64,000 nucleotides of DNA from Chloroflexota bacterium. Its GTDB lineage: Bacteria > Chloroflexota > Chloroflexia > QHBQ01. Both the position numbers and the translations under genes were made by a program. The notes beneath the pieces are model-generated. The model did not search any database and was not told the DNA's origin. It was given only the letters and a program-made list of their open reading frames with translations. The number at the start of each line of letters is the position of its first letter. Within the stretch, counting starts at the first letter, position 1. The DNA lies in contig JANXYP010000200.1 in the NCBI GenBank assembly GCA_025355955.1, positions 16,125 to 80,124 of the forward strand, given 5' to 3'. Positions 3,755 through 63,515 of the stretch are shown one piece after another.

Positions 3755-3872
3755 CTTGAGTTCATGACCAGGGCAAACCGTTGTTCGCCCCTACTGAACG
3801 CTTACTCCGCAAGAACGTGACGCGCACTCGGTTTTTACAAATCAAAACTCAAAACTCAAAACTCAAAACTCA
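3755..3872. repeat. Family-1 REP-like core with inverted loop plus conserved tail (3755..3835), followed by the heptamer tandem repeat (tcaaaac)x4 at 3842..3869
   Basis: Direct reading. ccagggcaaaccgttgttcgcccctac tgaacgcttactccgcaagaacgtga, then acaaatcaaaactcaaaactcaaaactcaaaactca. Confidence 0.8.
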
Positions 3873-4571
3873 TCACTGGTACCGCTGCCGCGTCTTGAGC
3901 ATCTCGATGTAGCCGCCCGCCAGCTTGCCGAGCGGGTCGTGGTGGGTCCAGTGCATCTCGCCACCTTGCTCGTTCCAGATGTAGCGGCCACGTACCTCCA
4001 CCTCGTCGCCCACCCGCAGCGACACCCGTGGTGCATCGTCAATGTTGTGGACCACCAGGATTGATTGGCCGTCGGGCAGGGCGATGACGAAGCGTTGGTG
4101 GCGGTTGCCAATTGTATCGGTAGACAGCCGCTTGGTGACGCGGCCCTGAACCGTCAGCATCACGTTATTGTACTTATGTTCAAAGGCGCTCTCCGCGGTA
4201 AGCGCAAAGTTTGCCATATCTGCCACCTTGAACGGCATAGTGCGCTGGCGTATCTCCAGTTCTTCCTTGAGCGGTGAAGGAGGTGGGGAGTCAACGGGCA
4301 GCGTACCTGGCGCGAGGTGCTTGGCTGAAGCGGCTTCGAGCGCTGGCCCGAACACTTCATCGGCGTGCTGGCGCTGTTGCTGGCGGCGTTCGCGGCGGTT
4401 CAGCCCTGGCTTAGGCACGCTGTGCTGCTGATGCGCGGTTAGCGATGCTTGCGCCTTTGCCGCCCGACCTTTGTTCGGCGCTGATGGAGACCGCTGCCGA
4501 TGCGCCCGTCGTCGCAAAATGGCGGCGATTAGCTGAAGCAGCCTGGCGAACACCCTGATCATGCTGCCCAT
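3873..4571 (-). CDS. Hypothetical protein: N-terminal hydrophobic segment, Arg/Gln-rich low-complexity region, conserved ~130-aa C-terminal domain (…HQRFVIALPDGQSILVVHNIDDAPRVSLRVGDEVEVRGRY…)
   Basis: The ORF track extends to 4775 but that overlaps the convergent gene at 4646. Internal ATG at 4571 (MGSMIRVFARLLQLIAAIL) is the likely start. Function not recognisable. Confidence 0.45.
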   Translation of the reverse strand: MGSMIRVFARLLQLIAAILRRRAHRQRSPSAPNKGRAAKAQASLTAHQQHSVPKPGLNRRERRQQQRQHADEVFGPALEAASAKHLAPGTLPVDSPPPSPLKEELEIRQRTMPFKVADMANFALTAESAFEHKYNNVMLTVQGRVTKRLSTDTIGNRHQRFVIALPDGQSILVVHNIDDAPRVSLRVGDEVEVRGRYIWNEQGGEMHWTHHDPLGKLAGGYIEMLKTRQRYQ

Positions 4572-4645
4572 TAACCCTCCGAGTAGATGCCCTCCCCCAT
4601 TTCGGGGCAGGGTTGGGGTGGGGTAGTGTATAAAATGGCGCACGA

Positions 4646-5371
4646 ATGCCGTGCGCGGAAACCAGACCACTGATGAGCGATGCACACCTCGACCCAACTC
4701 TTTTGATCGAGATATACTCCCGGCTAGTCGCCAGCTATGGCCTGCAAGAATGGTGGCCGAGCCAGACTGGTACACCGTTCGAGGTTATCGTCGGCGCGAT
4801 CCTGACCCAGGGTACTAGTTGGCGCAGTGTGGAGCGCAGCATCACCAACATCATCGCCGCCGATGCCATGTCGCCCACCGCCATCCAGCAAATGCCTCGT
4901 GCAGATCTGATTGATCTAATTCGCCCGTCAGGGTATTATAACGCGAAAGCGGCCAAGCTACAAGCCTTCACCACCTTTTTGTTCGCGCAGCACGGCGGCG
5001 ATCTTGCCAGCCTGTTTGCCCTGCCCGTGACGGAGATGCGCCACCAACTGCTGGGCGTGTGGGGCATTGGCCCCGAAACCGCCGACGACATCATCCTCTA
5101 CGCCGCCTGCCAGCCCATCTTCGTGGTCGACTCCTACACCCAACGCATCCTCACCCGCCTGGGTATCGTCGCCCCCGCCATCACCCACCACGCGCTGCAA
5201 GAACGCTTCGCCAGCCTGCCAGCCGATGTGCCGCTGTTCAGCGAATACCACGCTCTGCTCGACGAACACGGCTCGCGCACCTGCCGCCCTACCCCTCGCT
5301 GCGCCGCCTGCCCCTTGCTCGATCTGCCCTGCCAGTATGGGCAGCAGCGGATGCTGAGTGCTGAGTGCTGA
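4646..5371 (+). CDS. Endonuclease III-like HhH-GPD DNA glycosylase with C-terminal 4Fe-4S cluster loop (C-x6-C-x2-C-x5-C)
   Basis: 241 aa with HhH-GPD core and a C-terminal Cys cluster RTCRPTPRCAACPLLDLPC. Alternative start at ATG 4673 (MSDAHL). Stop codon lies inside a (gctgagt)4 repeat. Confidence 0.7.
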   Translation: MPCAETRPLMSDAHLDPTLLIEIYSRLVASYGLQEWWPSQTGTPFEVIVGAILTQGTSWRSVERSITNIIAADAMSPTAIQQMPRADLIDLIRPSGYYNAKAAKLQAFTTFLFAQHGGDLASLFALPVTEMRHQLLGVWGIGPETADDIILYAACQPIFVVDSYTQRILTRLGIVAPAITHHALQERFASLPADVPLFSEYHALLDEHGSRTCRPTPRCAACPLLDLPCQYGQQRMLSAEC

Positions 5372-5380
5372 GTGCTGAGT
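5353..5380. repeat. Heptanucleotide tandem repeat (gctgagt)x4 spanning the stop codon of the HhH-GPD gene
   Basis: atgctgagtgctgagtgctgagtgctgagtgcc. TGA at 5369..5371 lies inside repeat unit 3. Confidence 0.9.
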
Positions 5381-5386
5381 GCCTCG

Positions 5387-5518
5387 TAAACAAAGTTTTG
5401 ACGAGGGGTGTAGTTTCCCCTCCCGCCGGGAGGGGTTGGGGTGGGTGCGTGCAGCGCGATGTAGACCCACCCCCTGCCCCTCCCAGCGGGAGGGGAGAAC
5501 CTCAAAACTTAGTTTACA
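5387..5518. mobile_element. MITE-like element family 2: ends taaacaaagttttgacgagg … cctcaaaacttagtttac enclosing a long GC hairpin (gggaggggttggggtgggtgcgtgcagcgcga … gacccaccccctgcccctcccagcgggagggg)
   Basis: Second full copy with an internal duplication at 46778..46990. Fragments at 4591..4628 and 24770..24805. Confidence 0.6.
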
Positions 5519-5613
5519 AAGCACTGAGTACGACACAAACTTAATTCAATGAGAACCTACGTAGGGGCGCAGATTTATCGCGCCTCGGTGAAGCGCATTA
5601 CTGCACCCCAAAC

Positions 5614-8120: not shown

Positions 8121-8214
8121 TAATACCAATTAGCCGTGGTGCCGCTATAATTTCTGTAGGGGCGAACCGTTGTTCGCCCTGGCCCAATTTATACTATCTG
8201 CTCGGCTAATTGGT
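8121..8214. mobile_element. MITE-like element family 1 (inverted orientation)
   Basis: ataccaattagccgtggtgccgctataatttctgtaggggcgaaccgttgttcgccctggcccaatttatactatctgctcggctaattggtat. Confidence 0.75.
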
Positions 8215-8235
8215 ATAAGAACAGAGTTTAGGTTG

Positions 8236-9114
8236 ATGCTCAGGCCATCTATGCCTCTACCACCGATCCTCTCCCACTATCAGGCTAGCCCCATCCTTGA
8301 AGCGCGACGCAAGGGGCAATCAACCGTGACCACCTCGCTGGATCTGGGCCGCAGTAGCGTGGAAGTGTCACTCACTGCCAGCGGCCTGCTGCTCCCTGAT
8401 GGGCAGGAACTCGGCTGGGCGGCGCTGGAGAAGGTAAATGGCGACGAGAACAAGTGCTTCACCGTCGAGGGCGGCGCAATCCAGCCGATCATCGTTCACT
8501 CGCCAACCACCAACTGGGTACGCACCCTATACCCCACCGCTGCTGCGCCAACTACCCTGGTCGCAGGCTTCCTCATGCACCGCATCAAGGATATTGACCC
8601 GTTGCAAGATACCCGCCGCAAAATCGCCACGATTGCGCCGATTACTGGCGCAGTGTTGGACACCGCTACCGGCCTCGGCTACACTGCGATCGAGGCGGCC
8701 CGCACCGCTACCCATGTTACCACCATCGAGCTAGATGCGGGCGCATTGGAGATTGCCCTGCTCAATCCCTGGTCGCAGCCGTTGTTCGACAATCCAAAGA
8801 TTACGCAAATAATTGGCGATGCCACTGAGGAGATCGCGAAGTTCGCCGACGGCCGGTTCAATCGCATCCTGCATGACCCGCCCACCTTCAGTCTGGGCGG
8901 CGAGCTATACTCCGCTGCCTTCTACGCCCAGCTATATCGGGTGCTGGGGCAGGGCGGACGGCTCTTCCACTACATCGGCGACCTCAGCAGCAGCTACGGC
9001 AGCCGCACGGTCAAGGGCGTGGTCCGCCGCTTGTTGGATGCAGGTTTCAGTCGGGTGGTGAAGAAGGATGAGGCGTTTGGGTTGGTGGCTACGAAGTTAA
9101 AAGTTGAAGGTTGA
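8236..9114 (+). CDS. Class I SAM-dependent methyltransferase with DPPF (motif IV) amino-methyltransferase signature (RsmD / N6-adenine-methyltransferase-like)
   Basis: The ORF track starts at 8170 inside the MITE. First ATG after the element is 8236. ILHDPPTFSLGG motif. The C-terminal residues and stop are encoded by a heptamer repeat. Confidence 0.55.
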   Translation: MLRPSMPLPPILSHYQASPILEARRKGQSTVTTSLDLGRSSVEVSLTASGLLLPDGQELGWAALEKVNGDENKCFTVEGGAIQPIIVHSPTTNWVRTLYPTAAAPTTLVAGFLMHRIKDIDPLQDTRRKIATIAPITGAVLDTATGLGYTAIEAARTATHVTTIELDAGALEIALLNPWSQPLFDNPKITQIIGDATEEIAKFADGRFNRILHDPPTFSLGGELYSAAFYAQLYRVLGQGGRLFHYIGDLSSSYGSRTVKGVVRRLLDAGFSRVVKKDEAFGLVATKLKVEG

Positions 9115-9137
9115 AGGTTAAAAGTTGAGGGTTGAGG
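9096..9137. repeat. Heptanucleotide tandem repeat ((a/g)gtt(a/g)a(a/g))x6 spanning the stops of two convergent genes
   Basis: agttaaaagttgaaggttgaaggttaaaagttgagggttgag. Confidence 0.85.
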
Positions 9138-10533
9138 TCATTCCGTAGGGGCGAACAACGGTTCGCCCTGGCCCAACTGCCTGATGCCTGATGAAAGTTG
9201 CACATAATTCCTCGCCCCTCAACATATACTCGACCAATGCCAGATTGTGACTCGCACCGATCTTGCGGAAGATGGTCGCCGCTTGCGTAAGCATCTCCCG
9301 CGCTGCCGGGGTGATAGCACCTTCGCGTTGGGCAATCGCTTTGGCATAATCATGGTAATCACGGCCCAGGTCGTAGGCATCACCGCGATGCTTGCTTTGC
9401 ACGATCGCCAGTTGGAAGTTGGCCTCGGCCTGCGGCCAGTCGCCCTGTGTGCCGTAGAAGTGGGCAATGGTCAGATAGAAGTGTTCATGATTCTCGCGGC
9501 CCGGTTGCTGATCGAAGCGGCGCAGCCAGTCAATGTAGTGGCGGGCATGGGCGAACTCACCGGTCGCGGTGTGATATTCCACCATTCGAGCCGCAACTTC
9601 TTTTTTGAGAATAATCGGGGCGGTGGGTTCCTCGAACACCGCGATGGCGGGCGCATAGCTACCCGCCAAATCGCCCATCTCCTGCCGCACCAGACTTAGC
9701 CGCGATAGCGCATATGCCTCGACGATCTTATTGTTGCCCACGCGGGCGGCGCTGAGAGCGCGGTTTAGATACTCCACTGCCTGCTCGAAGTCGCCCGCGC
9801 AGCGATGCACCCCCGCGACGCTAACCAGCGACTGGCTGATGAAGTTCTGGTTTTCGACCTGTGGCAGCAACTCTATTACCCGCTGCGCGTACTGGATGGC
9901 CCGTGAGATGGGGCCAATGTGGATATAGACGTGGCAAAGCAGCCGATATGACAGCATCAGGGTGGTGGGGTCGCCGTGCGCCTCGGCGAACTGGGCGGCC
10001 TTGTTGTAACGGAACAGCGCCTCGTGCATCCGCCCCTCGGTGGTACTGACATTACCGAGGTTGGCCCACAGCCGCGCTGCCAGTTCGCCGCCCGCCAGTC
10101 CTACATGGCGCAGGCCACGCTGATAATACAGGGTGGCCGCGCCGCCAACGCCGCTCACGTACTCGATGTTGCCCAGAATGTTCAAGATTTCGCCGAGCAG
10201 TTGCTTGTCGCCCGCTTCAGATTCGAGCATTACCAGTAGCGGCAGCAACTCCATCTTGGCCTGCTGCATCTCGCCCTGGTAGTAATGAATCAGCCCCTGT
10301 AGCCAGCGCAAACGTGCAGTCAGCAGGGCTGCCTCGGTGCCAAAGTCGGCGCTGGCAAGCTCCGCCTCCACGTTGGCAAGCTGGGCCTGGGCCGCCGCAT
10401 AGTCGCCCCGCTTGATATCAGTCTGAGCGCTATCCAACGTCTGGCGCAACCACACCGCTGCCAGCAAAGCGTCACACTGCTGACAGCGTTGGGCCGAAGC
10501 CGGGTTCTCGGCATTGCAGTTGGGGCAACGCAT
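9118..10533 (-). CDS. TPR-repeat protein with N-terminal zinc-ribbon (MRCPNCNAENPASAQRCQQCDALL)
   Basis: 471 aa. CxxC…CxxC at the N-terminus, multiple TPR-like helices. The C-terminal ~15 aa (GPGRTVVRP…) are translated from a REP-like element at 9146..9170. Confidence 0.6.
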   Translation of the reverse strand: MRCPNCNAENPASAQRCQQCDALLAAVWLRQTLDSAQTDIKRGDYAAAQAQLANVEAELASADFGTEAALLTARLRWLQGLIHYYQGEMQQAKMELLPLLVMLESEAGDKQLLGEILNILGNIEYVSGVGGAATLYYQRGLRHVGLAGGELAARLWANLGNVSTTEGRMHEALFRYNKAAQFAEAHGDPTTLMLSYRLLCHVYIHIGPISRAIQYAQRVIELLPQVENQNFISQSLVSVAGVHRCAGDFEQAVEYLNRALSAARVGNNKIVEAYALSRLSLVRQEMGDLAGSYAPAIAVFEEPTAPIILKKEVAARMVEYHTATGEFAHARHYIDWLRRFDQQPGRENHEHFYLTIAHFYGTQGDWPQAEANFQLAIVQSKHRGDAYDLGRDYHDYAKAIAQREGAITPAAREMLTQAATIFRKIGASHNLALVEYMLRGEELCATFIRHQAVGPGRTVVRPYGMTSTLNF

Positions 10534-14713: not shown

Positions 14714-15562
14714 GTGAACAAATTGGAACATAAACGCACCACCTCAGCGCGGAAACGGTCGGGAGTCGGCGTAGCGCTGATCGCCGCGCTTGGCCTGGTC
14801 GCGCTTCTCGCTGCCTGCGACACAAGCGGTAGCGCAAGCCAGCCCCAGCAGGCGGTGGTATCACAACCGCAGCCGCAAGCGCCAAGCCCGAACAATCCCC
14901 CTAAGATTGCTACTGCCTATCGCCCCGGTGGGCAGGCTACCCCCTATGCTCCGCTGGTCATTCCCCCCGCCCCCGCCCTGCCGCCTGCGGTTGGCGCGGT
15001 GCTACTCGCTGACAGCTTCGCCGACACCCCGATCAGCAACTATACCATCGTTGATCTGGGAGTGGCCCCCGATGCCCGCCCCTCTACCTGGGCGGTACAG
15101 GACGGTATGCTAGCTCAGAACGGAGACGCTGACGGCAACCCCGCCGCCAACGAGACCCTCGCTGTAATCGGCAATGCAGTCTGGACCAACTACAGCGTCG
15201 AGGCTGAAGCCTACTCCGGTGGCAGCCCGCTCGGTTTGGTGGCGCGTTATTCGAAGGCCGGTTTCTACCGCCTGCGGGTCAATCGCAGCACGGTCACGGG
15301 CGCGGGCTGGCTGCTACAACGCTACGACAGTGGCAAGCAAGCCTATACCACCCTTGCCAGCGGCGCGCTCAATAGCGGCTACACCGTTCAGCAGTGGAAT
15401 TACCTCAAGCTGACGGCGCAGGGCAGCACCATCAGCGTCACGATCAACGGCCAGCCTGCGGCCAGCGTCAATGATAGCGCTTACCCAGGCGGCAGTGTTG
15501 GCCTCTACACCGAAGCAACCGGGGCGCGTTTCAGCAACCTGCGCGTCAGCGCACTGCAGTAA
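14714..15562 (+). CDS. Lipoprotein with DUF1080 (LamG-like / 3-keto-disaccharide-hydrolase-like) domain, copy 1
   Basis: GTG start with AGGAGG 8 nt upstream. Lipobox LLAAC. The C-terminal 120 aa (GFYRLRVNRSTVTGAGWLLQRYDSG…FSNLRVSALQ) are typical DUF1080. Confidence 0.65.
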   Translation: MNKLEHKRTTSARKRSGVGVALIAALGLVALLAACDTSGSASQPQQAVVSQPQPQAPSPNNPPKIATAYRPGGQATPYAPLVIPPAPALPPAVGAVLLADSFADTPISNYTIVDLGVAPDARPSTWAVQDGMLAQNGDADGNPAANETLAVIGNAVWTNYSVEAEAYSGGSPLGLVARYSKAGFYRLRVNRSTVTGAGWLLQRYDSGKQAYTTLASGALNSGYTVQQWNYLKLTAQGSTISVTINGQPAASVNDSAYPGGSVGLYTEATGARFSNLRVSALQ

Positions 15563-15585
15563 AATTGGAGAGGAATAGCAACCTA

Positions 15586-18063
15586 ATGTATAAAACTAAA
15601 CTTGCCAGCCGCGCCTTCGTCGGGCTGGTCAGCCTATCCCTGCTGCTAACCTTGAGCGTCTCCTACAGCGCCGCCCAACCCGCCACTGCACCTACCAGCC
15701 CATCCAGCCAGGGCCAGCCCGCCGCGCAATCAGCTAGCCGCCCCGCCTATAGCAACGTGCAGTGGTCAGCGGCGCAAAACATCTCTGGTGGCAATGGCGA
15801 ACTCTATCCTGGCGTGGCGATGAACGCGGGTGAGGCTCAGGTAAACTTCAAGGGTAGTTCTACTCAGGAGATCTACGAGTCCTACAGCAGCGATAACGGC
15901 CACAGCTGGGCGGCACCCACGTATCGCGGCTGCGACAACGGCAGCGCACGGGGCTCGACTGCACCCAGCATCGCCGAAGATGCCAACAAAAATGTCTACA
16001 TGGTGTGGGAGGATTACTGCGGACCCACTCGCCAACTGTACTTCAAGAAGCATGATGCTACATCCAACCAGTGGCAGGCTACCCGTCAGATCGTCAGCTC
16101 CAACAGTAATGGCGGCTCCGTGGCGGTCGGCCCTAATGGGGTGATCCACGTCTCATACATCAATGTGTTTGCCAGCGGGTCTAGCGGCCAGCTCGAATAT
16201 ATCTACTCCACCAATGGCGGTGCCTCCTTCAGCGCCCCCACTGTCCTTACTAACAGCGCTGAGTGGATTAACACTAGCCACATTGCGGTGGATACGCTCA
16301 ACCGCCCCCATATTGTCTGCGAAAAAGGTCCTTCTGGGCGATACAGCATTGTGGCTGAGGACTTCGTCAATGGCGCATGGCACACGACTACGATATATAC
16401 TGGTCGCGGCTACTGGTCGCAAATTGCCGCCAACCACAGTGGCGGAGTAGGCGCCGTCTGGCAGATGAACGATGCGGGGGATCAGATCCTCTACAGCCGC
16501 TGGAATGGCGCAAGCCAGACGTGGGATGCGATTTCCACCCAGGTATCGGTTGACAGTAGCAACAACTATTACCCCACGCTTACATACGACAACCTCGACG
16601 ATGCTTATGTCGTCTGGGGCCAGAGCAGCGGCAGCCCCGGTTCGCAGCAACTGCAGTTCAGCTACGAGCAAAGCATCGGCAATTGGAGCGCCGAGATAAA
16701 TATTCAGAGTACCCGCACCAGCGTAGCAGTGCTGGCTAACTACAACAACAATCTGACCGTCGCCTATCAGTTTGATGGCACGGGCAACTGGGGTATCTGG
16801 TCTAGCTGGCTGCAACTACCGCAGGCAAACTTCACGCCGACTAGCATCGCTACGCCAACCCACACCGCTACGCGGACTAACACGCCTACCAACACTGCCA
16901 CCGCCACCTTCTGCCCGGGCCAGACCTTCACCGATGTGAACTGCTCATTTTGGGCGTTCGGTTACATCAAGGCGATGAACGATGCCAACGTCATCAATGG
17001 CTACAGCGGCGCACAGTGTACTGGCGTACACGTCGGTTCGCCTTGTTACCTGCCAAGCAACCTGGTAACCCGCGCTGAAGTGACCAAGATGCTGGCCCGC
17101 GCCGAGGCCTGGCCGGCCGTTACCGTTACCAGTCCCCACTTTACCGATGTGCCGCCAAATTACTGGGCTTTCCAGTTTATTGAACGAGCGGTTGCGAATG
17201 GCGTGGCCGACGGTCTAAGCGCGCAGCAGTGCCAGGCAGCAGGCGCGACTCCACCCTGCTACTTGCCTAATAGCCCTTTGACCCGCGCCCAGATGACTAA
17301 GTTCGTCTACCGCGCTCATCATCCAGTTCCCTATACGCCAAGCGGGACACAGACATTCACCGATGTGCCGCCCAGCTACTTCGCCTATGGCTACATCGAA
17401 ACTGCCAACCATGATGGCATTGTTACTGGCTACACCTCGCAGCAGTGTACGGCGGCTGGCGCAACCTTCCCTTGCTTCCTGCCCAACCGCAACGTCCACC
17501 GCGATGAAGTGGCAAAGATGGTCAAGAAAATGCTCGACGCGGGCAGCGTTACCTCCACGCCGACTGTCGCGCCGACCTCGACCGCGACCAACACGCCGAC
17601 GAATACAAACACGCCAACGCTGACCAGCACTGCTGTCGCTACCAGCACCAACACGCCCACGCCGACCAGCACCAACACGCCCGCGCCGCCCACCAGCACT
17701 CCGCTGTCGTCTACCAACACCCTTACGCCCGTACCAACCGTCACTGTCACCCCTACCCCTACCATCACTCCAGGGATAGTCAATGTCAACATTGTGGACT
17801 ATGCCTTCAGCCCGCAAACCATCACTGTCACGCTCGGCACGCGTGTAATCTGGACAAACACTGGGACGATGACTCATACTGTCAACTCTGACGATGGCAG
17901 CTCGTTCGCCTCCGGCAACATTGCGCCATCAGGAACCTTCAGCCGTACCTTCACCACCACCGGCACGATCGGCTACCACTGCACTATCCACGGCGGCATT
18001 CATACGGGGATGTACGGTACGGTCGTCGTGCTGGCCGCCGACCACCCTAACGGCACAAATTAG
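15586..18063 (+). CDS. Secreted BNR/sialidase-like beta-propeller protein with three SLH domains and a C-terminal cupredoxin (plastocyanin/azurin-like type-1 copper) domain, copy 1
   Basis: The ORF track starts at 15565 (TTG). ATG at 15586 gives a signal peptide MYKTKLASRAFVGLVSLSLLLTLSVSYSAAQP. BNR motifs (SYSSDNGHSW, YSTNGGASF). SLH repeats (FTDV…WAF…I…A…ITRAE). C-terminal H…C-x2-H-x4-M (YHCTIHGGIHTGM). Confidence 0.7.
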   Translation: MYKTKLASRAFVGLVSLSLLLTLSVSYSAAQPATAPTSPSSQGQPAAQSASRPAYSNVQWSAAQNISGGNGELYPGVAMNAGEAQVNFKGSSTQEIYESYSSDNGHSWAAPTYRGCDNGSARGSTAPSIAEDANKNVYMVWEDYCGPTRQLYFKKHDATSNQWQATRQIVSSNSNGGSVAVGPNGVIHVSYINVFASGSSGQLEYIYSTNGGASFSAPTVLTNSAEWINTSHIAVDTLNRPHIVCEKGPSGRYSIVAEDFVNGAWHTTTIYTGRGYWSQIAANHSGGVGAVWQMNDAGDQILYSRWNGASQTWDAISTQVSVDSSNNYYPTLTYDNLDDAYVVWGQSSGSPGSQQLQFSYEQSIGNWSAEINIQSTRTSVAVLANYNNNLTVAYQFDGTGNWGIWSSWLQLPQANFTPTSIATPTHTATRTNTPTNTATATFCPGQTFTDVNCSFWAFGYIKAMNDANVINGYSGAQCTGVHVGSPCYLPSNLVTRAEVTKMLARAEAWPAVTVTSPHFTDVPPNYWAFQFIERAVANGVADGLSAQQCQAAGATPPCYLPNSPLTRAQMTKFVYRAHHPVPYTPSGTQTFTDVPPSYFAYGYIETANHDGIVTGYTSQQCTAAGATFPCFLPNRNVHRDEVAKMVKKMLDAGSVTSTPTVAPTSTATNTPTNTNTPTLTSTAVATSTNTPTPTSTNTPAPPTSTPLSSTNTLTPVPTVTVTPTPTITPGIVNVNIVDYAFSPQTITVTLGTRVIWTNTGTMTHTVNSDDGSSFASGNIAPSGTFSRTFTTTGTIGYHCTIHGGIHTGMYGTVVVLAADHPNGTN

Positions 18064-18779: not shown

Positions 18780-19610
18780 TTGTCAAATCAGAAGTCAAGC
18801 AATAGGGTTGCACGGGTTTGGGTTGGCCTCGCGCTAATTAGTGCGGCGCTGATCATGTCCGCTTGCAGCAGCGGCGGTACCGCCGCACAACCGGGTCAGG
18901 CGGTGGTGTCCCAACCGCAGCCGCAAACGGTAAGCTCGAACAATCCACCCAAGGTAGCTACTGCCTACCGCCCCGGTGGGCAGGCTACCCCCCAGCCTCC
19001 CATCGTCATTCCACCTGCCCCCGCCCTGCCCCCCAGCAGCGGCACCATCCTACTCGCCGATAACTTTGCCAACACCCTGATCAGCAACTACACCATTGTT
19101 GACATTGGCGCTGGCTCCGATGCCCTCCCCTCTAGCTGGCAGGTGCAGAACGGGATGCTCGCCCAGAATGGCGATAGCGACGGCAACCCTGCCTTCTACG
19201 ATACCTACGCCCTCACCGGCGATGCCGCCTGGACCAACTACAGCGTGGAGGGCGAAGCCTACTCTGGCGGCAGCCCGTTCGGCCTGGTAGCTCGCTACTC
19301 GAAGGCCGGTTTCTACCGCCTGCGGGTCAATCGCAGCACGGTCACGGGCGCGGGCTGGCTGCTACAACGCTACGACAGTGGCAAGCAAGCCTACACCACC
19401 CTTGCCAGCGGCGCGCTCAATAGCGGCTACACCGTTCAGCAGTGGAATTACCTCAAGCTGACGGCGCAGGGCAGCACGATTAGCGTAACCATCAACGGCC
19501 AGCCCACGGCCAGCGTCAGCGATGCCACCTACGCGGTGGGCAGCGTTGGCTTCTATGCCGAGGCTAGCGGGGCGCGCTTCAGCAACCTGCGCGTCAGCGC
19601 ACTGCAGTAG
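18780..19610 (+). CDS. Lipoprotein with DUF1080 domain, copy 2 (paralog of 14714..15562)
   Basis: TTG start with AGGAGG 8 nt upstream. Lipobox IMSAC. About 190 nt (≈19290..19480) are almost identical to 15240..15430. Confidence 0.65.
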   Translation: MSNQKSSNRVARVWVGLALISAALIMSACSSGGTAAQPGQAVVSQPQPQTVSSNNPPKVATAYRPGGQATPQPPIVIPPAPALPPSSGTILLADNFANTLISNYTIVDIGAGSDALPSSWQVQNGMLAQNGDSDGNPAFYDTYALTGDAAWTNYSVEGEAYSGGSPFGLVARYSKAGFYRLRVNRSTVTGAGWLLQRYDSGKQAYTTLASGALNSGYTVQQWNYLKLTAQGSTISVTINGQPTASVSDATYAVGSVGFYAEASGARFSNLRVSALQ

Positions 19611-19633
19611 AATTGGAGAGGAATAGCAACCTA

Positions 19634-22096
19634 ATGTATAAAGCTAAACTTGCCAGCCGCGCAGTCGCCGGTCTGGTTGCAATATCCCTGCTAATGACGG
19701 TGGGCGTTACCTACAGCGCTGCCCAGCCGGTCACGGCAACCAATAACCCGCCCGGCCCGTCCCAACCTGCGGTCAAGTCGGGGGCGCAATCCGCCGTTAA
19801 GTCCGGGGCGCAACCTGCATACACCAATGTGCAGTGGTCGGATGCCCAGAACGTATCCGGCGGTAGCGGTGAACTCTACCCTGGCCTGGCGATGAACGGC
19901 GGCGAAGCCCAGATAAACTTCAAGGGCGGCTCTCCCCAGGAGATTTTCGAGTCTTATAGCACCGATAACGGTCACACCTGGTCTGGACCCAGGTATCGGG
20001 GCTGCGACGGTGGTGCCGTGGCAGGCTCGACCGCGCCCAGCATTGCTGAAGACATCCACCTCAACGTCTATATGGTGTGGGAAGACTACTGCGGTAGCAC
20101 TCGCCAGTTGTACTTCAAGAAGTACGATGTTATCACCAACCAGTGGCTGGCTACCCGCCAGATCGTCAGCTCCAACACTAATGGCGGTTCAGTGGCGGTT
20201 GGCGCTGATGGGGTAATCCACATCTCCTTCATCAATGTGTTCGCCAGTGGGAGCAGCGGCCAGGTCGAGTACATCTACTCCACCAATGGTGGCAACAACT
20301 TCAGCAGCCCCACCGTTCTTAGCGACAGTAAGACCTGGGTGGTCACCACCCACGTTGCGGTGGACACCCTCAACCGCCCCCACATCGTCTACGACAAAGG
20401 CCCCAGTGGACGCTACAGCATTATCGCCAGCGATCTGATCAATGGCGCATGGCACGCGACTTCGATATACAGCGGGCGCGGTTTTTGGCCGAAGATTGCC
20501 GCTGACCACAATGGCGGCGTGGGTGCGGTCTGGCAGATGAACGATGCCGGGGTGCAGATACTCTATAGCCATTTTGATGGCACCAGCCAGCAGTGGGATG
20601 GGGTTCCCACCCAGATTTCGGTTGATAGTAGCAACAACTATTACCCTGCGCTCACCTACGACAACCTCGACGATGCCTATGTGGTTTGGGGTCAGAGCGA
20701 CAGCAGCCCCGGCTCTCAGCATCTGCAGTTCAGCTACGAGTACAGCCCTGGGGTCTGGAGTCCCGAGATCAACCTTCAGGGTACCCGTACCAGCGTGCCG
20801 GTGCTGGCTAACTACAACAACAATCTGACGCTAGCCTACCAGTTCGACGGCACAGGCAACTGGGGTATCTGGTCCAGTTGGGCGCAACTGTCGCAGCAGA
20901 CTAATACTCCGACCAACACCCCAACCAATACTTATACGCCCACGCCCACCAACACCCCCACCAACACCCCTACCTTCACGCCGACGTTTACGCCCACCCC
21001 TTGCGCTGACGGCTCGTTGTTCGCCGATGTCTGCCAGGGCTACTGGGCTTACCCCTACATCCAGGCACTGGGGCTACGCGGTATCGTCAGCGGCCAGGGC
21101 GGATACTACTACCCCGGTCGGCTAATCACTCGCGCCGAACTAACCGCAATTATGGTGCGTTCGCAGAGCTGGTCGCTGATTACACCGCCGACCCCCAGCT
21201 TCAGCGATGTACCAATTAGCTACTTTGCCTACAGCTACATAGAAACCGCCCTTGCCCATCACGCGATCAGCGGCTACACCGACAACATCAGCTCGCATCC
21301 CTGCGCCGATGCTGGCGTGGGTTCACCCTGCTTCCTGCCCAACAATTACGTGAAGCGTGATGAGACCACTGTGATCATCGTCAGGGCCAGCGGCTTCCCG
21401 CTAATCACCCCGCCGAACCCGAGCTTCACTGACGTGCCGACAACCTACTGGGCGTACAGCGCAATCGAAACCGCGCACGCTCGTGGCATCGTCTCCGGTG
21501 TAGGTGGTGGCCTGTTCCGCCCCGGAGACCACGCCAAGCGCGATCAGATGGCGAAGATCGTATACCTGGCCCTGCCCGCCATCACTAGCATCGTTCCCAG
21601 TTCGGCGCAGGCAGGTAGCAACACCCTGGTGACCATTACTGGACGCAACTTCGGCGACCCCCAGACCATCAGCAGCACGCTGCAGGTCAATGGGATAACC
21701 ATGACGATCGTCAGTTGGCACGACACCGTGATTAACTTCACCATTCCAGCTAACACGCCGTCCACGCCGAGTCCGGCAACCATCAATTTGACCTGGAACA
21801 ACAAGCTAGCCTTCATTGAGAACAACACCACCTTCACCGTGCTGCCCGCGCCGACCGCTACACCAGGCCCGCCGACCAGCACACCAGGTGGCCCCACCAA
21901 CACGCCGCTGCCGACCGTTACCAGCACGGCAACGGCAACGGTCACACCGGGCGGCCCAACTAACACCCCGCTGCCAACCGTTACCAGCACCGCAACGGTC
22001 ACACCGGGCGGCCCAACTAACACCCCGGTAGCTACCAACACGCCGCTGCCGACTACGACCGCAACCGCAACCCTTGCTGCTGAACCGAACAAGTAG
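19634..22096 (+). CDS. Secreted BNR/sialidase-like protein with three SLH domains and a C-terminal IPT/TIG domain, copy 2
   Basis: Same spacer and start context as copy 1 (ttggagaggaatagcaacctaATG). BNR motifs, SLH repeats, then an IPT/TIG-like segment (ITSIVPSSAQAGSNTLVTITGRNFG…) instead of a cupredoxin. Confidence 0.7.
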   Translation: MYKAKLASRAVAGLVAISLLMTVGVTYSAAQPVTATNNPPGPSQPAVKSGAQSAVKSGAQPAYTNVQWSDAQNVSGGSGELYPGLAMNGGEAQINFKGGSPQEIFESYSTDNGHTWSGPRYRGCDGGAVAGSTAPSIAEDIHLNVYMVWEDYCGSTRQLYFKKYDVITNQWLATRQIVSSNTNGGSVAVGADGVIHISFINVFASGSSGQVEYIYSTNGGNNFSSPTVLSDSKTWVVTTHVAVDTLNRPHIVYDKGPSGRYSIIASDLINGAWHATSIYSGRGFWPKIAADHNGGVGAVWQMNDAGVQILYSHFDGTSQQWDGVPTQISVDSSNNYYPALTYDNLDDAYVVWGQSDSSPGSQHLQFSYEYSPGVWSPEINLQGTRTSVPVLANYNNNLTLAYQFDGTGNWGIWSSWAQLSQQTNTPTNTPTNTYTPTPTNTPTNTPTFTPTFTPTPCADGSLFADVCQGYWAYPYIQALGLRGIVSGQGGYYYPGRLITRAELTAIMVRSQSWSLITPPTPSFSDVPISYFAYSYIETALAHHAISGYTDNISSHPCADAGVGSPCFLPNNYVKRDETTVIIVRASGFPLITPPNPSFTDVPTTYWAYSAIETAHARGIVSGVGGGLFRPGDHAKRDQMAKIVYLALPAITSIVPSSAQAGSNTLVTITGRNFGDPQTISSTLQVNGITMTIVSWHDTVINFTIPANTPSTPSPATINLTWNNKLAFIENNTTFTVLPAPTATPGPPTSTPGGPTNTPLPTVTSTATATVTPGGPTNTPLPTVTSTATVTPGGPTNTPVATNTPLPTTTATATLAAEPNK

Positions 22097-40598: not shown

Positions 40599-40723
40599 CT
40601 TGTTTTCAGACAGCCTCTTAAACCAAGCTTAACCCTGCCTCTCCATATGTGAAAACTAAAGCGCAAAAATAAGCAATTGATAGCTGGTTGGCGAAGGATG
40701 CAATCGGTCGCGTCTTTGTATCT

Positions 40724-46334: not shown

Positions 46335-46770
46335 TCATTCCAATTAGCCAACGAGATGCTATAGTTCTGTAGGGGCGAACCGCTGTTCGCCCTGGCTCAA
46401 TCTATCGCGGCACCATCGATAATAGGAATAAGGCAAGCTCTCCCCCCACCAACCTACCCACAGGGAACCCCACAAGGGGGTTTCCCCGCTGGGGAGAGGC
46501 TTTTTGGCTTATCGTATTAGCCAACGAGATGCTATAGTTCTGTAGGGGCGAACCGCTGTTCGCCCTGGCTCAATCTATAGCGGCACCATCGCTAATGGGA
46601 ATAAGGCAAGCTCTCCCCTCACCAACCTACCCACAGGGAACCCCACAAGGGGGTTTCCCCGCTGGGGAGAGGCTTTTTGGCTTATCGTATTAACCAACGA
46701 GATGCTATAGTTCTGTAGGGGTGAACCGATGTTCGCCCTGGCTCAATCTATAGCGGCACCATCGCTAATG
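46335..46770. repeat. About 2.5 tandem copies of a ~180-bp composite repeat. Each unit is a family-1 REP-like core (gtaggggcgaaccgctgttcgccctgg) plus a terminator-like hairpin (ctctcccc…ggggagaggcttttt).
   Basis: Units start at ~46335, ~46517 and ~46688 (partial). Confidence 0.8.
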
Positions 46771-46990: not shown

Positions 46991-47012
46991 CGGCTCTCAA
47001 AACTCAAAACTA

Positions 47013-55790: not shown

Positions 55791-55925
55791 GACGGACCTC
55801 CGAGAAGGTAGCAGGTAGTGGGTAGAAGGTAGAATGTGGTGGCTGGCTGGTGAAGTATCGATGCCTCTATTATAGCGACAAGTGGGGGTGTGGGCAAGAG
55901 GGTGCAATCCATCAAGCTCTTTGCT

Positions 55926-55955: not shown

Positions 55956-56042
55956 TATGTGAGAGTGCAGGCGCGCTGAATCCGCGCCGCTACAAAGCAG
56001 GCTTATCCAACGCGACAGATATAGCATGACCAATCACGCCAC

Positions 56043-56084
56043 AATCCGAAATCCAAAATCCGAAATCCAAAATCGAAAGATCGG
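56043..56084. repeat. Heptamer tandem repeat (aatccga/aatccaa)x6 in the hppD 5' leader
   Basis: aatccgaaatccaaaatccgaaatccaaaatcgaaagatcgg, ending 12 nt before the hppD ATG. Confidence 0.85.
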
Positions 56085-58329: not shown

Positions 58330-58440
58330 TGAGCGTTGGGTGCCAACGCAGGAATAATGCAAAAAGCCCCCAGCGGGGGTTGGGGGAATGCCACCTCGCC
58401 GCAAAAAGCCCCCAGTGGGGGTTGGGGGAGAAATCCCGAA
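58330..58440. repeat. Two tandem ~45-55-bp family-4 repeats containing the hairpin cccccagcggggg / gggggttggggg
   Basis: caaaaagcccccagcgggggttgggggaatgcc… caaaaagcccccagtgggggttgggggagaaatc… The same family occurs in inverse orientation at 62500..62640. Confidence 0.7.
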
Positions 58441-58579: not shown

Positions 58580-59059
58580 ATGACCGCCATCGCAATTCAA
58601 ACTACCATCCGTCCCGCCCGCCCCGATGAGGCAGCATACCTTACCGAACTAACGATGCGCTCCAAAGCGCACTGGGGCTACGATGCCGACTTCCTGGCCG
58701 CCTGCCGCCCCGGCCTAACTATAACGGCGGACTACATCGCTAGCCACCCTGTCTACGTTGCCGATGACGATGGCACAATAATTGGCTTTTATAGTCTAGC
58801 CGAGGAGATACCAGGTCAGCAGGTCGAGCTAGACTTCCTGTTCATCGCGCCAGAGGCAATCGGCAAAGGAGCGGGCAAGCGGCTCTGGCAGCACGCTGTC
58901 ACCAACGCCCGTCGACATGGCTACTGCCTGATGAGCATCGTTGCCGACCCCAATGCCGAAGCGTTCTATCGGCACATGGGCGCGGTAACAGTAGGCGTGG
59001 TGCTGTCGGAGGCCAAAGTAGGGCGCACACTGCCGCTGCTGCACTTCTCATTGTTATAA
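58580..59059 (+). CDS. GNAT-family N-acetyltransferase
   Basis: 159 aa. Acetyl-CoA-binding motif A-like IGKGAGKRLW. Confidence 0.6.
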   Translation: MTAIAIQTTIRPARPDEAAYLTELTMRSKAHWGYDADFLAACRPGLTITADYIASHPVYVADDDGTIIGFYSLAEEIPGQQVELDFLFIAPEAIGKGAGKRLWQHAVTNARRHGYCLMSIVADPNAEAFYRHMGAVTVGVVLSEAKVGRTLPLLHFSLL

Positions 59060-59070
59060 GGGGGGTTATA

Positions 59071-59229
59071 ATGCGTTTCAAAGTTGTACTCGAGCCAGAC
59101 AAAAACGGCTACACTATCTACGTCCCTGCGCTACCTGGCTGTATTAGCGAGGGTAAGACCGAGGCGTAGGCGCTTACTAACATCCAAGAGGCTATCGAAC
59201 TTTATTTGGAGCCTGTAGAGGAAGATTAG
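59071..59229 (+). pseudogene. HicB-like antitoxin remnant with in-frame TAG (codon 33) and a short C-terminus
   Basis: ATG 59071 preceded by AAGGGGGG. Translation MRFKVVLEPDKNGYTIYVPALPGCISEGKTEA*ALTNIQEAIELYLEPVEED* matches the HicB N-terminal consensus across the stop (gag to tag). No hicA nearby. Confidence 0.5.
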
Positions 59230-59239
59230 CAGAAAGCGC

Positions 59240-59274
59240 CAATCTGCAATCTGCAATCTGCAATCTACAATCAG
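59240..59274. repeat. Heptamer tandem repeat (caatctg)x5 in the hmgA leader
   Basis: ccaatctgcaatctgcaatctgcaatctacaatcagg. Confidence 0.85.
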
Positions 59275-60777: not shown

Positions 60778-60962
60778 ATACCAATTAGCCGCGCAGCTAG
60801 TACAAATTGGACCAGGGCGAACAACGGTTCGCCTAACAGATCGCCGAACAGAATGGACCAGGGCGAACAACGGTTCGCCTAACAGATCGCCGAACAGAAT
60901 GGACCAGGGCGAACAACGGTTCGCCCCTACAGAACTATGGCATCGCCTCGGCTAATTGGTAT
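60778..60962. mobile_element. MITE-like element family 1 with three tandem copies of the core (43-bp unit ggaccagggcgaacaacggttcgcctaacagatcgccgaacagaat)
   Basis: TIRs ataccaattagccg … cggctaattggtat as at the other family-1 loci. The internal core is triplicated. Confidence 0.75.
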
Positions 60963-60984
60963 TACTCAAAACTCAGTATTGTTC

Positions 60985-62050: not shown

Positions 62051-62051
62051 G

Positions 62052-62480
62052 TTAATAATCCCCTCTCTTTTTCACTGCAACAAGTATGGTGAAATCGCGC
62101 ACCCGCCAGCCGATACTGGTGCTGACCATCTGCGCCTGCAGCACTGGCGCAGTGGGTTGCCAGTCGCCCGCGCCGCTGCGTAGCTCCACCGTCACCGTCA
62201 CAAGTACGCTTGCACCCTCGTCGGTGTTCGGGGTGGGAGTAGCTGATAGCGGCGTAAAGATCGCCTTTGGGTTACGCACATCGTAACCGTGCAGCGTGTT
62301 TGCCACCGCCGCGATGCTTGCCTCATTCTCCGCCGTAATCTGACGCGGCAGCCAGTACGCCTGCGCGTTGTCCGTGGCACCCTCGTGGAGGAAAAAGAAA
62401 AAGTTGAGCGTGGCCGCCTCCGGTGTAATCGTCGGCTGCATCGGTTCGCCACATCCCGACAATAGCGATACAAGCAGCAA
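62052..62480 (-). CDS. Hypothetical lipoprotein (…AWFIAALLLVSLLSGCGEP…); start codon unresolved
   Basis: Lipobox LLSGC is clear, but no in-frame ATG/GTG lies upstream. A TTG at 62480 would leave only 8 signal residues. The ORF-track N-terminus (to 62822) translates two family-4 repeat units (SKKPPAGVGGE x2). Possible frameshift or 5'-end duplication. Confidence 0.3.
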   Translation of the reverse strand: MLLVSLLSGCGEPMQPTITPEAATLNFFFFLHEGATDNAQAYWLPRQITAENEASIAAVANTLHGYDVRNPKAIFTPLSATPTPNTDEGASVLVTVTVELRSGAGDWQPTAPVLQAQMVSTSIGWRVRDFTILVAVKKRGDY

Positions 62481-62499
62481 GGCCGCGATGAACCATGCT

Positions 62500-62640
62500 C
62501 GTCCAGCATTGAGGGGGGTTCGAGATTCTCCCCCAACCCCCGCTGGGGGCTTTTTGCTGATGATGAACCATGCTCGTTCAACATTGAGCTGGGTTCGATA
62601 TTCTCCCCCAACCCCCGCTGGGGGCTTTTTGCTAACGTGC
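62500..62640. repeat. Two tandem ~75-bp family-4 repeats (inverse orientation relative to 58330..58440). Each includes the hairpin cccccgctggggg + cttttt and the first codons of the adjacent lipoprotein signal peptide.
   Basis: atgaaccatgctcgtccagcattgaggggggttcgagattctcccccaacccccgctgggggctttttgctg, repeated with variants. Confidence 0.7.
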
Positions 62641-62748
62641 TGGTTTAGTCCTGGGTTGCTTGACAAGCGTAGCCCCCCTGCCTTATAATCCCTCATAATT
62701 TGTTCGCCGGTTGGAGTAATTGGGCAACAGGCTGAAGGAGAATCGAAC

Positions 62749-63411
62749 GTGACACAGAATAATACCGAACAGGCGCGTCCCACCCGCATCGTTGCCGCCG
62801 ACGACGAGCCACTTATTCGCATGAACCTGCGCGAGACGCTTAACAGCCTCGGTTATGAGGTGGTGGGCGAGGCGGGCGATGGTAGCCAGGCAGTCAAGCT
62901 GGCCCGCGAGTTGCGACCAGACATCGTGATTATGGACATCAAGATGCCGGAGATGGACGGTATCGAGGCGGCTCACATCCTGACTAGTGAACAGATCGCC
63001 CCTGTCCTGCTGCTGACCGCCTACAGCGATCGTGAGCTGATTGAGCGGGCTAAGGGTGCAGGGGTGATGAACTACCTGGTCAAGCCCTTCCGTGAAGAGA
63101 GCCTGACCCCCGCCATCGAAGTGACGCTGGCGACCTGGAGCAGTATGCAGCAACTCGATCAACAGGTGGACAGTCTACAGGGCCAGCTTGATACCACCCA
63201 GGGTGAGCTAGGCAGTCTGCGTGAGCAGCTCGAGGCCCGCAAGATGATCGAGCGGGCGAAGGGGCTGCTGATGCAGCGCAAAGGCATCAGCGAACAGGAA
63301 GCCTTCCGCATCGTGCAGAAGCGCAGCATGGACTCGCGCAAGTCCATGCGCGAGGTGGCGAAGGAGATCATTGATGCTTACTCGCTGACCGACGACCTGG
63401 AAAAGCAATGA
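62749..63411 (+). CDS. ANTAR-domain response regulator (REC + ANTAR; AmiR/NasT-like RNA-binding antiterminator)
   Basis: GTG start with AAGGAG upstream. REC acid pocket (…VAADDEP…IVIMDIKMPEMDG…). C-terminal ANTAR helix pair (…EARKMIERAKGLLMQRKGISEQEAFRIVQKRSMD…). Confidence 0.75.
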   Translation: MTQNNTEQARPTRIVAADDEPLIRMNLRETLNSLGYEVVGEAGDGSQAVKLARELRPDIVIMDIKMPEMDGIEAAHILTSEQIAPVLLLTAYSDRELIERAKGAGVMNYLVKPFREESLTPAIEVTLATWSSMQQLDQQVDSLQGQLDTTQGELGSLREQLEARKMIERAKGLLMQRKGISEQEAFRIVQKRSMDSRKSMREVAKEIIDAYSLTDDLEKQ

Positions 63412-63515
63412 TGAATGGTGAATGGTAAATGGTAAATGAAAAGCAAGGTGCCTCCACGGGCTTGCTTTCTTGCTGATTAACCTGATTTACCATTCACCAT
63501 TTACCATTCACCATT
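63412..63515. terminator. Composite bidirectional terminator-like structure between convergent genes: (gaatggt/aaatggt)x4, hairpin aagcaaggtgcctccacgggcttgctt + tcttgc, (accattc/accattt)x4
   Basis: The two heptamer arrays are near reverse complements, so they can extend the central hairpin into a ~28-bp outer stem. Confidence 0.55.

Follow-up and report, generated by a model that had tools for sequence, protein, structure and literature searches.

Heptanucleotides are, as the papers citing the survey of Mrazek, Guo & Shah (2007; cited in PMC4679880 and PMC4692102) report, the most abundant class of long simple sequence repeats (SSRs) in most prokaryotic genomes, and polymerase slippage has been proposed for them. 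The short tandemly repeated repetitive (STRR) heptamers of heterocystous cyanobacteria are credited by later papers to Mazel et al. (1990; cited in PMC2670836 and PMC4692102); in Nostoc, STRR hairpins lie between hupS and hupL and upstream of hoxW beside the 3' end of the hppD gene, and they have been proposed to raise transcript stability or to couple translation (PMC2670836). Chloroflexus aurantiacus carries 22 satellites derived from (GATAGRA)n, for which transposition was suggested in a study that scored longer satellites (Subirana & Messeguer 2019, PMC6749651). TAACTGA repeats of marine Beggiatoaceae, some Cyanobacteria and Bacteroidetes stand directly upstream of start codons, and a translational role was proposed for them (MacGregor 2015, PMC4679880); the GGGNATC/GGGGAYT repeats of Xanthomonas and Nostoc form G-quadruplexes (Rehm et al. 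2015, PMC4692102); and deletion of heptamer repeats altered reporter expression in Nostoc recO/recF constructs (bioRxiv 10.1101/2022.06.06.494920). Here we describe tandem heptamer arrays in a stretch of 64,000 nucleotides from a Chloroflexota bacterium (assembly GCA_025355955.1, contig JANXYP010000200.1, positions 16,125 to 80,124), the whole of which we call the window. These arrays represent the known heptanucleotide SSR class in a further lineage, and they are placed and oriented with a regularity that we document below.

Heptamer arrays and their placement at gene boundaries

Arrays were called in the window with Tandem Repeats Finder (TRF) at all periods and, unless stated otherwise, the counts given are of arrays with at least three copies. 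At period 7 we found 13 arrays, whereas every other period up to 37 yielded between zero and two, and a match-run scan that is independent of TRF returned seven at period 7 against zero to three at periods 4-15. In 100 shuffles of the window that preserved local composition, the mean number of period-7 arrays was 0.51 and the maximum was 3. Within the window the enrichment of period 7 over other periods is therefore confirmed, and with 13 observed against 0.51 the heptamers are long SSRs in the sense of Mrazek et al. (2007), namely repeats of a 5-11-nt unit that are longer and commoner than composition predicts. Period-7 TRF arrays occupy 15 places with 2.3-5.7 copies and lengths of 16-46 bp, the density of arrays being 0.2 per kb, while rows of 2.1-2.3 copies at 43047, 44168 and 53054 are at the chance level for TRF. 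All ten tandem 7-mer arrays named in the original prediction are present, TRF reporting one at every cited place, and four more had been overlooked, namely 32312-32341 (TCTGCAA, 4.3 copies), 55803-55842 (AGAAGGT, 4.6-5.7 copies), 46996-47011 (CTCAAAA, 2.3 copies) and 9178-9193 (TGCCTGA, 2.3 copies).

Non-coding sequence, which makes up 13.7% of the window, holds 300 of the 462 array bases, and the arrays have a GC content of 39%, where non-coding sequence has 53.5% and the whole window 60%. When rotations and reverse complements are counted as one word, there are eight classes, AATCTGC, AAAACTC, AATGGTG, AAATGGT, ACTCAGC, AACCTTC, AAGGTAG and AAAATCC, with AATCTGC occurring four times, AAAACTC three times and AATGGTG/AAATGGT three times. 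The impression that a few words recur at distant loci was borne out, since we counted 10 same-class pairs where random non-coding heptamers would give 0.13; the GCAATCT word, for example, precedes both hmgA and the regulator gene at 39763. A search of the whole window against Rfam 15 at the gathering score gave no match.

Importantly, the arrays keep to gene boundaries. Eight begin at a stop codon or within 5 nt of one, or contain it, and five end 12-17 nt before a start codon or Shine-Dalgarno (SD) sequence or lie in the same sense within a coding-sequence linker, which upholds the earlier view that the arrays sit at gene boundaries and in 5' leaders, with eight at stops and four directly before starts. 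Several stop-proximal arrays supply C-terminal residues together with the stop codon itself. The array of TCAAAAC at 3842-3872 (4.4 copies, 100% match, plus-strand letters; GUUUUGA in the sense of the minus-strand gene 3873-4775) starts at the stop of that gene, 156 nt upstream of murG (2538-3686, minus strand) and near a repetitive extragenic palindromic (REP) element at 3771-3790, and the same word is found in the CTCAAAA array at 46996-47011 (2.3 copies, minus strand; again GUUUUGA in the sense of gene 47013-47570 on that strand), directly past the stop of the gene. The HhH-GPD glycosylase gene 4646-5371 takes its final codons and its TGA stop from the perfect TGCTGAG array at 5352-5382 (4.4 copies, plus strand). 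At 9096-9135, 5.7 copies of GTTRARR, with no C on the plus strand and a 21-nt super-period, span both convergent stops of genes 8170-9114 (plus) and 9118-10533 (minus), and are followed by a REP element at 9149-9168 and then by the short TGCCTGA array at 9178-9193. A G-rich arm of about six AGATTGY-type units (39593-39638, plus strand) extends over the final codons and stop of the DUF2203 gene 39210-39605, and a GGTGAAT array without C (40310-40337, 4.1 copies, plus strand) begins 5 nt past the stop of gene 39763-40305 and runs directly into the REP-like palindrome TAGGGGCGGCATAAATCCCGCCCT. Finally, the G-rich arm AATGGTR (63407-63438, 4.6 copies, plus strand) includes the TGA that terminates the ANTAR response-regulator gene 62749-63411, while the C-rich arm at 63485-63516, ATTYACC on the plus strand (4.4 copies) and AATGGTR in the sense of the minus-strand gene 63494-63979, encodes MVNGKW* including the stop.

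The start-proximal setting comprises four Pfam-supported genes, each preceded on its sense strand by a different word. In the hmgA leader, (CAATCTG) with 4.7 copies (59240-59272, plus strand) ends 17 nt before the ATG at 59290, just upstream of the SD, and in the hppD leader (AATCCRA) with 5.7 copies (56039-56078, plus strand) ends 17 nt before the ATG at 56096; hppD, a FAA hydrolase gene and hmgA are the tyrosine catabolism genes of the window. The C-rich arm CTGCAAT (39718-39746, 4.1 copies, plus strand), which pairs with 39593-39638, likewise stops 17 nt short of the ATG that opens the HTH_11/3H regulator gene 39763-40305. Five copies of a CTACCTT-type unit (55803-55842, minus strand), in the sense of a GSDH-like gene, end 12 nt before its probable ATG at about 55790, just before a GGAGG SD. 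Promoter-like hexamers, recognised by consensus match only, lie upstream of the hmgA array (59045-59072, plus strand) and of the GSDH-like array (55897-55869, minus strand), and such sites would place these two arrays in 5' untranslated regions.

Part of the arrays are predicted to fold. The region 63400-63525 has a predicted energy of -47.2 kcal/mol on the plus strand (z = -5.8) and -49.8 kcal/mol on the minus strand (z = -6.5), the arms 63407-63438 and 63485-63516 forming a predicted hairpin of about 110 nt on either strand. For 39598-39747 the predicted minimum free energy is -46.4 kcal/mol (z = -4.9), and the hmgA leader array is predicted to pair with a decayed, G-rich partner, GTAGAGGAAGATTAGCAGA at 59215-59233 on the plus strand, in a hairpin of -25.5 kcal/mol (z = -3.2). 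The hppD leader (z = -0.1) and the GSDH-like leader (z = +1.4) show no more structure than their shuffles. Taking the window together with 80 hmgA loci from other genomes, 76 of 120 arrays have an inverted partner within 220 nt, and only 3 of the 120 lie inside called open reading frames (ORFs).

Two arrays of the window belong to a coding sequence (CDS). The product of the S8 peptidase gene 28013-32790 (minus strand) has about 1590 amino acids and carries three SLH domains at its C terminus. The longest ORF of the gene reaches 33154, too far into a region full of repeats; the true start is near 32790-32800, where no canonical ATG, GTG or TTG is visible immediately before the signal peptide. 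In the sense of this gene, (GATTGCR) with 4.3 copies at 32312-32341 is translated as DCGVQIANCR in the variable linker between the pro-region and the catalytic domain, and (AAACTCA/AAATCTC) with 4.9 copies at 32102-32135 (TRF unit TGAGTTT) is translated as TQNSNLKSQNSS just before the conserved PDSWH...DTGVD, so that the catalytic Asp motif (LLDTGVD) begins immediately after the array. Between the two arrays, the REP element 32176-32195 reads QQGEQRFAPT. Upstream of the arrays, and in the same reading frame, come the signal peptide RRVRFIIPLLLALMLPALLAQSAP and the pro-region, both of which align to the homologues P0001, P0002, P0008, P0011 and P0014. Because signal peptide and pro-region on one side and the catalytic motif on the other flank them in a single frame, both arrays and the REP element between them are translated, and a start downstream of the arrays, which would leave them intergenic, is ruled out. 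Thus, the assignment of 32102-32135 to the S8 coding sequence in the original prediction is correct.

The linker that holds these arrays varies across all homologues and appears to have absorbed a whole spacer-like cassette of G-rich array, REP palindrome and C-rich array. At the equivalent position one orthologue (locus L081) has 3.7 copies of AACTCAG/AACTCAA, read QNSELKTQNS, and another (L082) has 3.7 copies of CCAAAAT, read DPKSKIQNP. Compared with the 4.9 copies of the window, orthologous arrays hence differ in copy number and in word, the words being related but not the same, among relatives at 53-67% protein identity (52-67% for the S8 relatives on metagenome contigs); in all three orthologues the frame is open through the array into the catalytic domain. 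Separately, pro-region frameshifts upstream of the array split the S8 orthologue at L082 8850-10150 into several ORFs, which could be assembly indel errors or mark a pseudogene. The argument that a 7-base unit excludes coding origin must therefore be abandoned: three units make seven codons, two arrays of the window are translated in frame within the S8 linker, the equivalent arrays of two other organisms are read in frame as well, and other arrays supply C-terminal codons and a stop. In-frame arrays and a REP element in a secreted protease mean that such repeats can be absorbed into protein linkers.

Relatives, paired arms and G-first polarity

For comparison we scanned a one-genome-per-species set with the hmgA protein, taking 80 hmgA loci (1.3 Mb), and collected 80 of the metagenome contigs carrying (CAATCTG)3, the median GC of these 80 being 62%. 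Look-ups for proteins identical to hppD and hmgA of the window gave no hit. The best hmgA relatives in the one-genome-per-species set are Chloroflexota metagenome-assembled genomes (MAGs), at 81% and then 63% identity. Period 7 again stood out: in the hmgA loci it gave 104 arrays and no other period more than 25, and in the metagenome contigs, where 122 further heptamer arrays consist of other words, it gave 219 and no other period more than 54. The comparison with related taxa proposed at the outset thus gives the same period-7 excess. In the metagenome contigs periods 8 and 9 are also raised, with 54 and 40 rows. Array-rich hmgA loci belong to Roseiflexaceae (L040), Anaerolineales (L018, L041), Chloroflexus, many Balneolaceae genera and Rhodothermales (L049), whereas other Chloroflexota MAGs, including the closest (L001), have no arrays in the stretch examined. 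Clear-cut spacers in L040 consist, in that order, of stop codon, G-rich array, short loop, complementary C-rich array, SD and ATG. Ten viral contigs also carry the (CAATCTG)3 array.

Every hppD-hmgA spacer of the Balneolaceae loci contains two inverted heptamer arrays, whose word differs between genera. Throughout this family (L007-L031, L048 and others, covering Gracilimonas, Balneola, Fodinibius and relatives), an inverted AT-rich heptamer pair makes up almost the whole spacer up to the ATG; the pair about 90-100 nt before hmgA keeps its position across genera and changes its word, and a second array about 3 kb upstream (GTTATTG/CCAATAA) keeps its word. Some high-GC soil contigs among those with (CAATCTG)n (L087, L091, L112, L116 and others) have spacers that are mosaics of side-by-side 7- and 8-nt arrays, such as (GGAGACAA)n with (CAATCTG)n and an (AGACGAT)n hairpin, and one metagenome contig has about 24 copies of CAATCTG. 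Many hmgA loci across phyla have arrays directly upstream of the gene, and a regulator site specific to hmgA was considered. We rejected it because in the window the word also stands before the unrelated gene of a regulator, because lineages with arrays have them in a sizeable fraction of all their spacers, and because the Balneolaceae cases are orthologous and hence not independent.

The most regular property of the arrays is their strand polarity. We assigned the 120 arrays of the window and the 80 hmgA loci to the nearer gene boundary using crude ORF calls, and examined polarity in 290 further arrays from relatives and metagenome contigs. Arrays beside the left-hand gene are C-poor on the plus strand in a ratio of 41:11 and arrays beside the right-hand gene are G-poor in a ratio of 37:12 (Fisher p = 4e-8); in transcript sense, post-stop arrays have 22% G and 10% C, and pre-start arrays 20% C and 10% G. 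The bias was replicated in the independent metagenome set with words not used in the search (23:7 versus 6:25, p = 9e-6). Moreover, where both arms of a pair were called by TRF, the G-rich arm came first in the 5'-to-3' direction in 43 of 46 pairs, namely 24:1 in co-directional, 5:1 in divergent and 9:1 in convergent spacers and 5:0 in unassigned ones, where no gene was called on one side. The G-rich strand thus runs 5' to 3' toward the spacer centre from both sides whatever the gene orientation, and this is no orientation artefact, since the order of a pair reads alike from either strand. The convergent status of the pair at 63407-63516 was verified by codon-position GC. G-first pairs span Chloroflexota, Balneolaceae/Rhodothermales, metagenome contigs and viral contigs, both of the two tight inverted pairs in viral contigs being G-first; adjacent arrays that are not complementary follow the same order (55803 then 56039 in the window, and L091, L112 and L116), as do the two S8 linker arrays.

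Several simple causes of this polarity were considered. Among pre-start arrays, ATG, GTG or TTG occurs in the sense strand only in 4 and in the antisense strand only in 24 (p = 2e-4), and avoidance of start triplets and SD-like runs of G explains part of the polarity; as its sole cause it is ruled out by the convergent spacers. Supply of stop codons does not account for C-poor post-stop arrays, as stop triplets are found in 45 sense versus 47 antisense of 61. Amplification of a pre-existing local G/C skew is ruled out by the array-free spacer flanks, in which G is about equal to C, and a keto/amino skew (G+T versus A+C) by the balance of A and T. With only 9 period-7 arrays, 100 kb of Nostoc PCC 7120 plasmid alpha offer too few cases for a test of the rule, but the C-rich arm leads in their one clear pair, and cyanobacteria may therefore not follow it. 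G-first polarity is a near-strict regularity that none of these causes explains in full and, as far as we found, both it and the placement rules are unreported in the literature on heptamer repeats. Terminator-like hairpins with T-runs at 58367-58428 (minus strand) and 39104-39124 (plus strand) have the C-rich arm first, for example CCCCCAACCCCCACTGGGGG-CTTTTT, opposite to the array hairpins, and the G-first order might mark hairpins that do not terminate.

The window also contains a REP family, GGGCGAAC-N4-GTTCGCCC, with 19 copies against 0.02 expected, and frequently lengthened to GTAGGGGCGAAC...GTTCGCCCCTAC; this palindrome, too, has the G-first order. Copies lie at 250-395, 2417-2513, 3771, 8160, 9149, 14549, 27985, 32176, 46373-46738, 58499 and 60815-60926, some in tandem clusters with periods of 37, 46 and 173 bp, and several stand between or beside heptamer arrays. 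The arrays themselves are not a REP-, REPIN- (paired REP) or MITE-type (miniature inverted-repeat transposable) element with a conserved core, which is ruled out by the loops between the GCAATCT arms, different in length and sequence at every locus inspected. Other repeats include a 65-69-bp unit (GGCATTGATGCGCTTC...CCCCTAC) present 2.3 and 2.0 times at the distant loci 32971-33119 and 40462-40599, and a 75-bp unit present twice at 62487-62633, where a CCCCC/GGGGG hairpin is followed by a T-run in terminator-like fashion. A two-gene module is tandemly duplicated at 14714-18063 and 18780-22096; it encodes a 3-keto-disaccharide-hydrolase-like protein and then a BNR and SLH surface protein of about 830 amino acids, which ends in a cupredoxin domain in the first copy and in a TIG domain in the second.

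Probable origin and proposed action of the arrays

On balance we consider it somewhat probable that the arrays are heptamers of the STRR or long-SSR type that grow and shrink by slippage, are tolerated where they do no harm, and act in mRNA as hairpins or G-free leaders. AT-rich 7-bp units would be amplified, and their copy number altered, by slipped-strand mispairing, and arrays would survive only where a change in length is harmless, namely in spacers, in the last codons of genes and in one disordered protein linker. From their position and folding we infer that most arrays lie in transcribed parts of mRNA and act there. A G-rich array and its complement flanking a spacer could form a long hairpin reaching from the upstream stop codon to just before the next SD, which might stabilise the mRNA, be a site of processing or pausing, or couple translation. 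A lone C/A-rich array before an SD would instead make a structure-free leader without G, and therefore without SD-like motifs and false start codons. The length of the stem or leader would change with copy number in steps of 7 bp, and expression could be tuned in this way. We count for slippage the turnover at orthologous places, the S8 linker and the Balneolaceae hppD-hmgA spacer, where arrays are kept while words and copy numbers change.

Several observations weigh against this account. Purely local slippage does not predict the recurrence of words within the window (10 same-class pairs where 0.13 were expected), nor does it predict that words are shared with distant lineages: the AGATTGY/GCAATCT hairpin, built from a word of the window, is present in the Roseiflexaceae MAG L040, whose hmgA is 54% identical, and exact (CAATCTG)3 occurs in at least 120 metagenome contigs. 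The near-absolute G-first polarity is a further difficulty, holding as it does (43:3 overall) also in convergent spacers that have no start codon nearby (9:1). Moreover, no array is present in the hmgA leader of L001, the closest relative available (81% identity in hmgA), and individual arrays are therefore dispensable. Because recurrence, cross-lineage sharing and polarity are not predicted by local slippage, three rivals stay alive, which invoke a binding protein, a process at the DNA level and phase variation of the S8 gene.

The recurrence of words is what one would expect if the arrays were multivalent sites for one or a few oligomeric nucleic-acid-binding proteins, with the word under selection and the 7-nt period set by subunit spacing; candidates would be an RNA-binding regulator of the HutP or TRAP type, S1, Csp or CsrA, or a DNA-binding global regulator. 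Consistent with this, few words recur at unrelated genes, such as GCAATCT before hmgA and before the 39763 regulator, this word has also been retained in a Roseiflexaceae MAG and in numerous high-GC metagenome contigs, and orientation relative to genes is strict. Binding of S1, Csp or CsrA was proposed for TAACTGA by MacGregor (PMC4679880), and a heptamer-binding protein was postulated in the Nostoc preprint (bioRxiv 10.1101/2022.06.06.494920). However, the 64 kb hold at least eight word classes that have no core in common apart from their G or C content, orthologous sites exchange one word for another, and this analysis yielded no candidate protein. In addition, pairing with the complementary arm that most arrays have would hide a single-stranded site. 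We therefore regard a binding protein as an unlikely explanation, though the least unlikely of the rivals.

Polarity, in turn, suggests a second rival, in which the arrays are the products or guards of a directional process on DNA centred on the spacers, instead of RNA-level selection. In one version, repeats would be added, or made by slippage synthesis, on 3' ends that point into a break, and the ends would then be joined, with the geometry of a telomere-telomere fusion, as a bacterial analogue of telomere healing; in another, selection would favour recombination-promoting, G-rich 3'-ended strands (Chi-like or RecA-loading) flanking breakage-prone palindromes. The G-rich strand does point toward the spacer centre on both sides, in convergent spacers as elsewhere, adjacent non-complementary arrays share the order, and so do the arrays of the S8 linker; the array-free spacer flanks have no such skew, REP palindromes often lie between G-rich and C-rich arrays (9149, 32176 and 40339), and the loops between arms are unrelated from locus to locus. 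On the other hand, there is no enzyme, template or break site to point to, many different words would require many templates, and with A and T in balance the strands lack the excess of G+T that characterises Chi, RecA-preferred and telomeric strands. Furthermore, two RNA-level selections, one against G before starts and one for a G-rich trailer after stops, could yield the same geometry, and the 100-kb Nostoc plasmid sample, with its one clear C-first pair, does not display the rule. We hold a DNA-level process to be doubtful, and somewhat more so than a binding protein. Were it true, heptamer SSRs would be repair scars or repair aids, and the 35-year-old puzzle of STRR-type repeats would be resolved. 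The polarity matters in either case: if it reflects a DNA-level process it points to a new mechanism of repeat genesis, and if it reflects RNA-level selection the arrays are a widespread, length-tunable post-transcriptional element.

The position of two in-frame arrays in the CDS of a secreted, S-layer-anchored protease raises the possibility that the arrays are contingency loci, at which copy-number changes switch genes on and off (phase variation), notably that of the SLH-anchored S8 protease; with both arrays in its CDS, gain or loss of one unit would shift the frame. Arrays in 5' leaders point the same way, since SSR length in such leaders affects expression in Haemophilus and Moraxella (PMC12721329; PMC4679880). 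The S8 gene is the only surface gene of the window with such arrays in its CDS. Nevertheless, the three S8 orthologues keep the frame of the catalytic domain open through the array, even though L082 is frameshifted upstream in the pro-region. The genes linked to arrays are mostly housekeeping or catabolic ones (the murG neighbour, hppD, hmgA, the glycosylase), not surface or virulence genes, arrays that overlap stops alter only a few C-terminal residues, and the host is a free-living environmental bacterium. A contingency role thus seems to us very unlikely, slightly more so than a DNA-level process. Finally, chance low-complexity sequence or an assembly artefact, in favour of which only the shortness of single arrays (16-46 bp) could be adduced, is excluded by the shuffle controls, which gave at most 3 arrays and 0.5 on average against 13, and by the recurrence of the architecture in independent assemblies from many projects, and it is equally at odds with the strict placement and orientation of the arrays.

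Comparison with known heptamer repeats

The units of STRR1, STRR2 and STRR3 are CCCCAGT, TTGGTCA and CAACAGT, and none of the eight word classes of the window is a rotation or complement of them. The resemblance to STRR repeats that the original prediction drew therefore stands for the architecture and not for the rest. Shared with STRR are the 7-bp tandem units in a few to tens of copies, the mostly intergenic positions at gene boundaries, seen here within the window, the several word families, and the inverted arrays that form hairpins between co-transcribed genes, as at hupS-hupL, or at 3' ends; different are the words and the host, which is a member of the Chloroflexota and not a heterocystous or filamentous cyanobacterium, and for these two reasons the arrays fall outside STRR proper. 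The gene content of the window is that of an ordinary free-living bacterium, with murG, a radical SAM enzyme, SLH-anchored surface proteins, an ABC sugar transporter and Lon, and it had seemed surprising to meet heptamers in such a genome. This surprise was unwarranted, since heptamers are abundant in most prokaryotes, according to the papers citing the 2007 survey, and are known in Chloroflexus aurantiacus (PMC6749651).

Our arrays agree with the long SSRs of that survey in that heptamers are in excess among units of 5-11 nt, lie mainly between genes and are scattered over the phylogeny, but paired inverted arrays, placement at stops and SD sequences, and G/C polarity are not described in it as far as the citing papers report. 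The (GATAGRA)n satellites of C. aurantiacus come from the same phylum, and there too a heptamer is found in many scattered arrays; however, it is a single and different word, whereas here there are eight classes in 64 kb and the sequence between arms is not conserved. Like the TAACTGA repeats, arrays of the window stand in 2-6 'forward' copies a few nucleotides upstream of the starts of unrelated genes, but TAACTGA is one dominant word and here there are several, with as many arrays at stops as at starts and often with hairpin pairing; the TAACTGA class itself is absent from the arrays of the window. The GGGNATC/GGGGAYT repeats, too, are intergenic and now and then stand as an inverted pair where two genes converge, and their length differs from one related strain to another, but they carry runs of three or four G, whereas our units are AT-rich and have at most GG. 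With the SSR contingency loci of Haemophilus, Neisseria and Moraxella the arrays share tandem repeats in leaders and CDSs whose length can alter expression, and differ in that there is no sign here of on/off switching or of a bias to surface antigens.

Our results thus add a Chloroflexota lineage to the heptamer-rich bacteria and show that STRR architecture is not peculiar to cyanobacteria. They also provide three regularities that can be tested on any genome collection, in that arrays start at stops or end at the SD, two thirds of them are hairpin arms, and the G-rich arm comes first regardless of gene orientation. Taken as a whole, the arrays of the window have the architecture of the known heptamer classes and the words of none of them.

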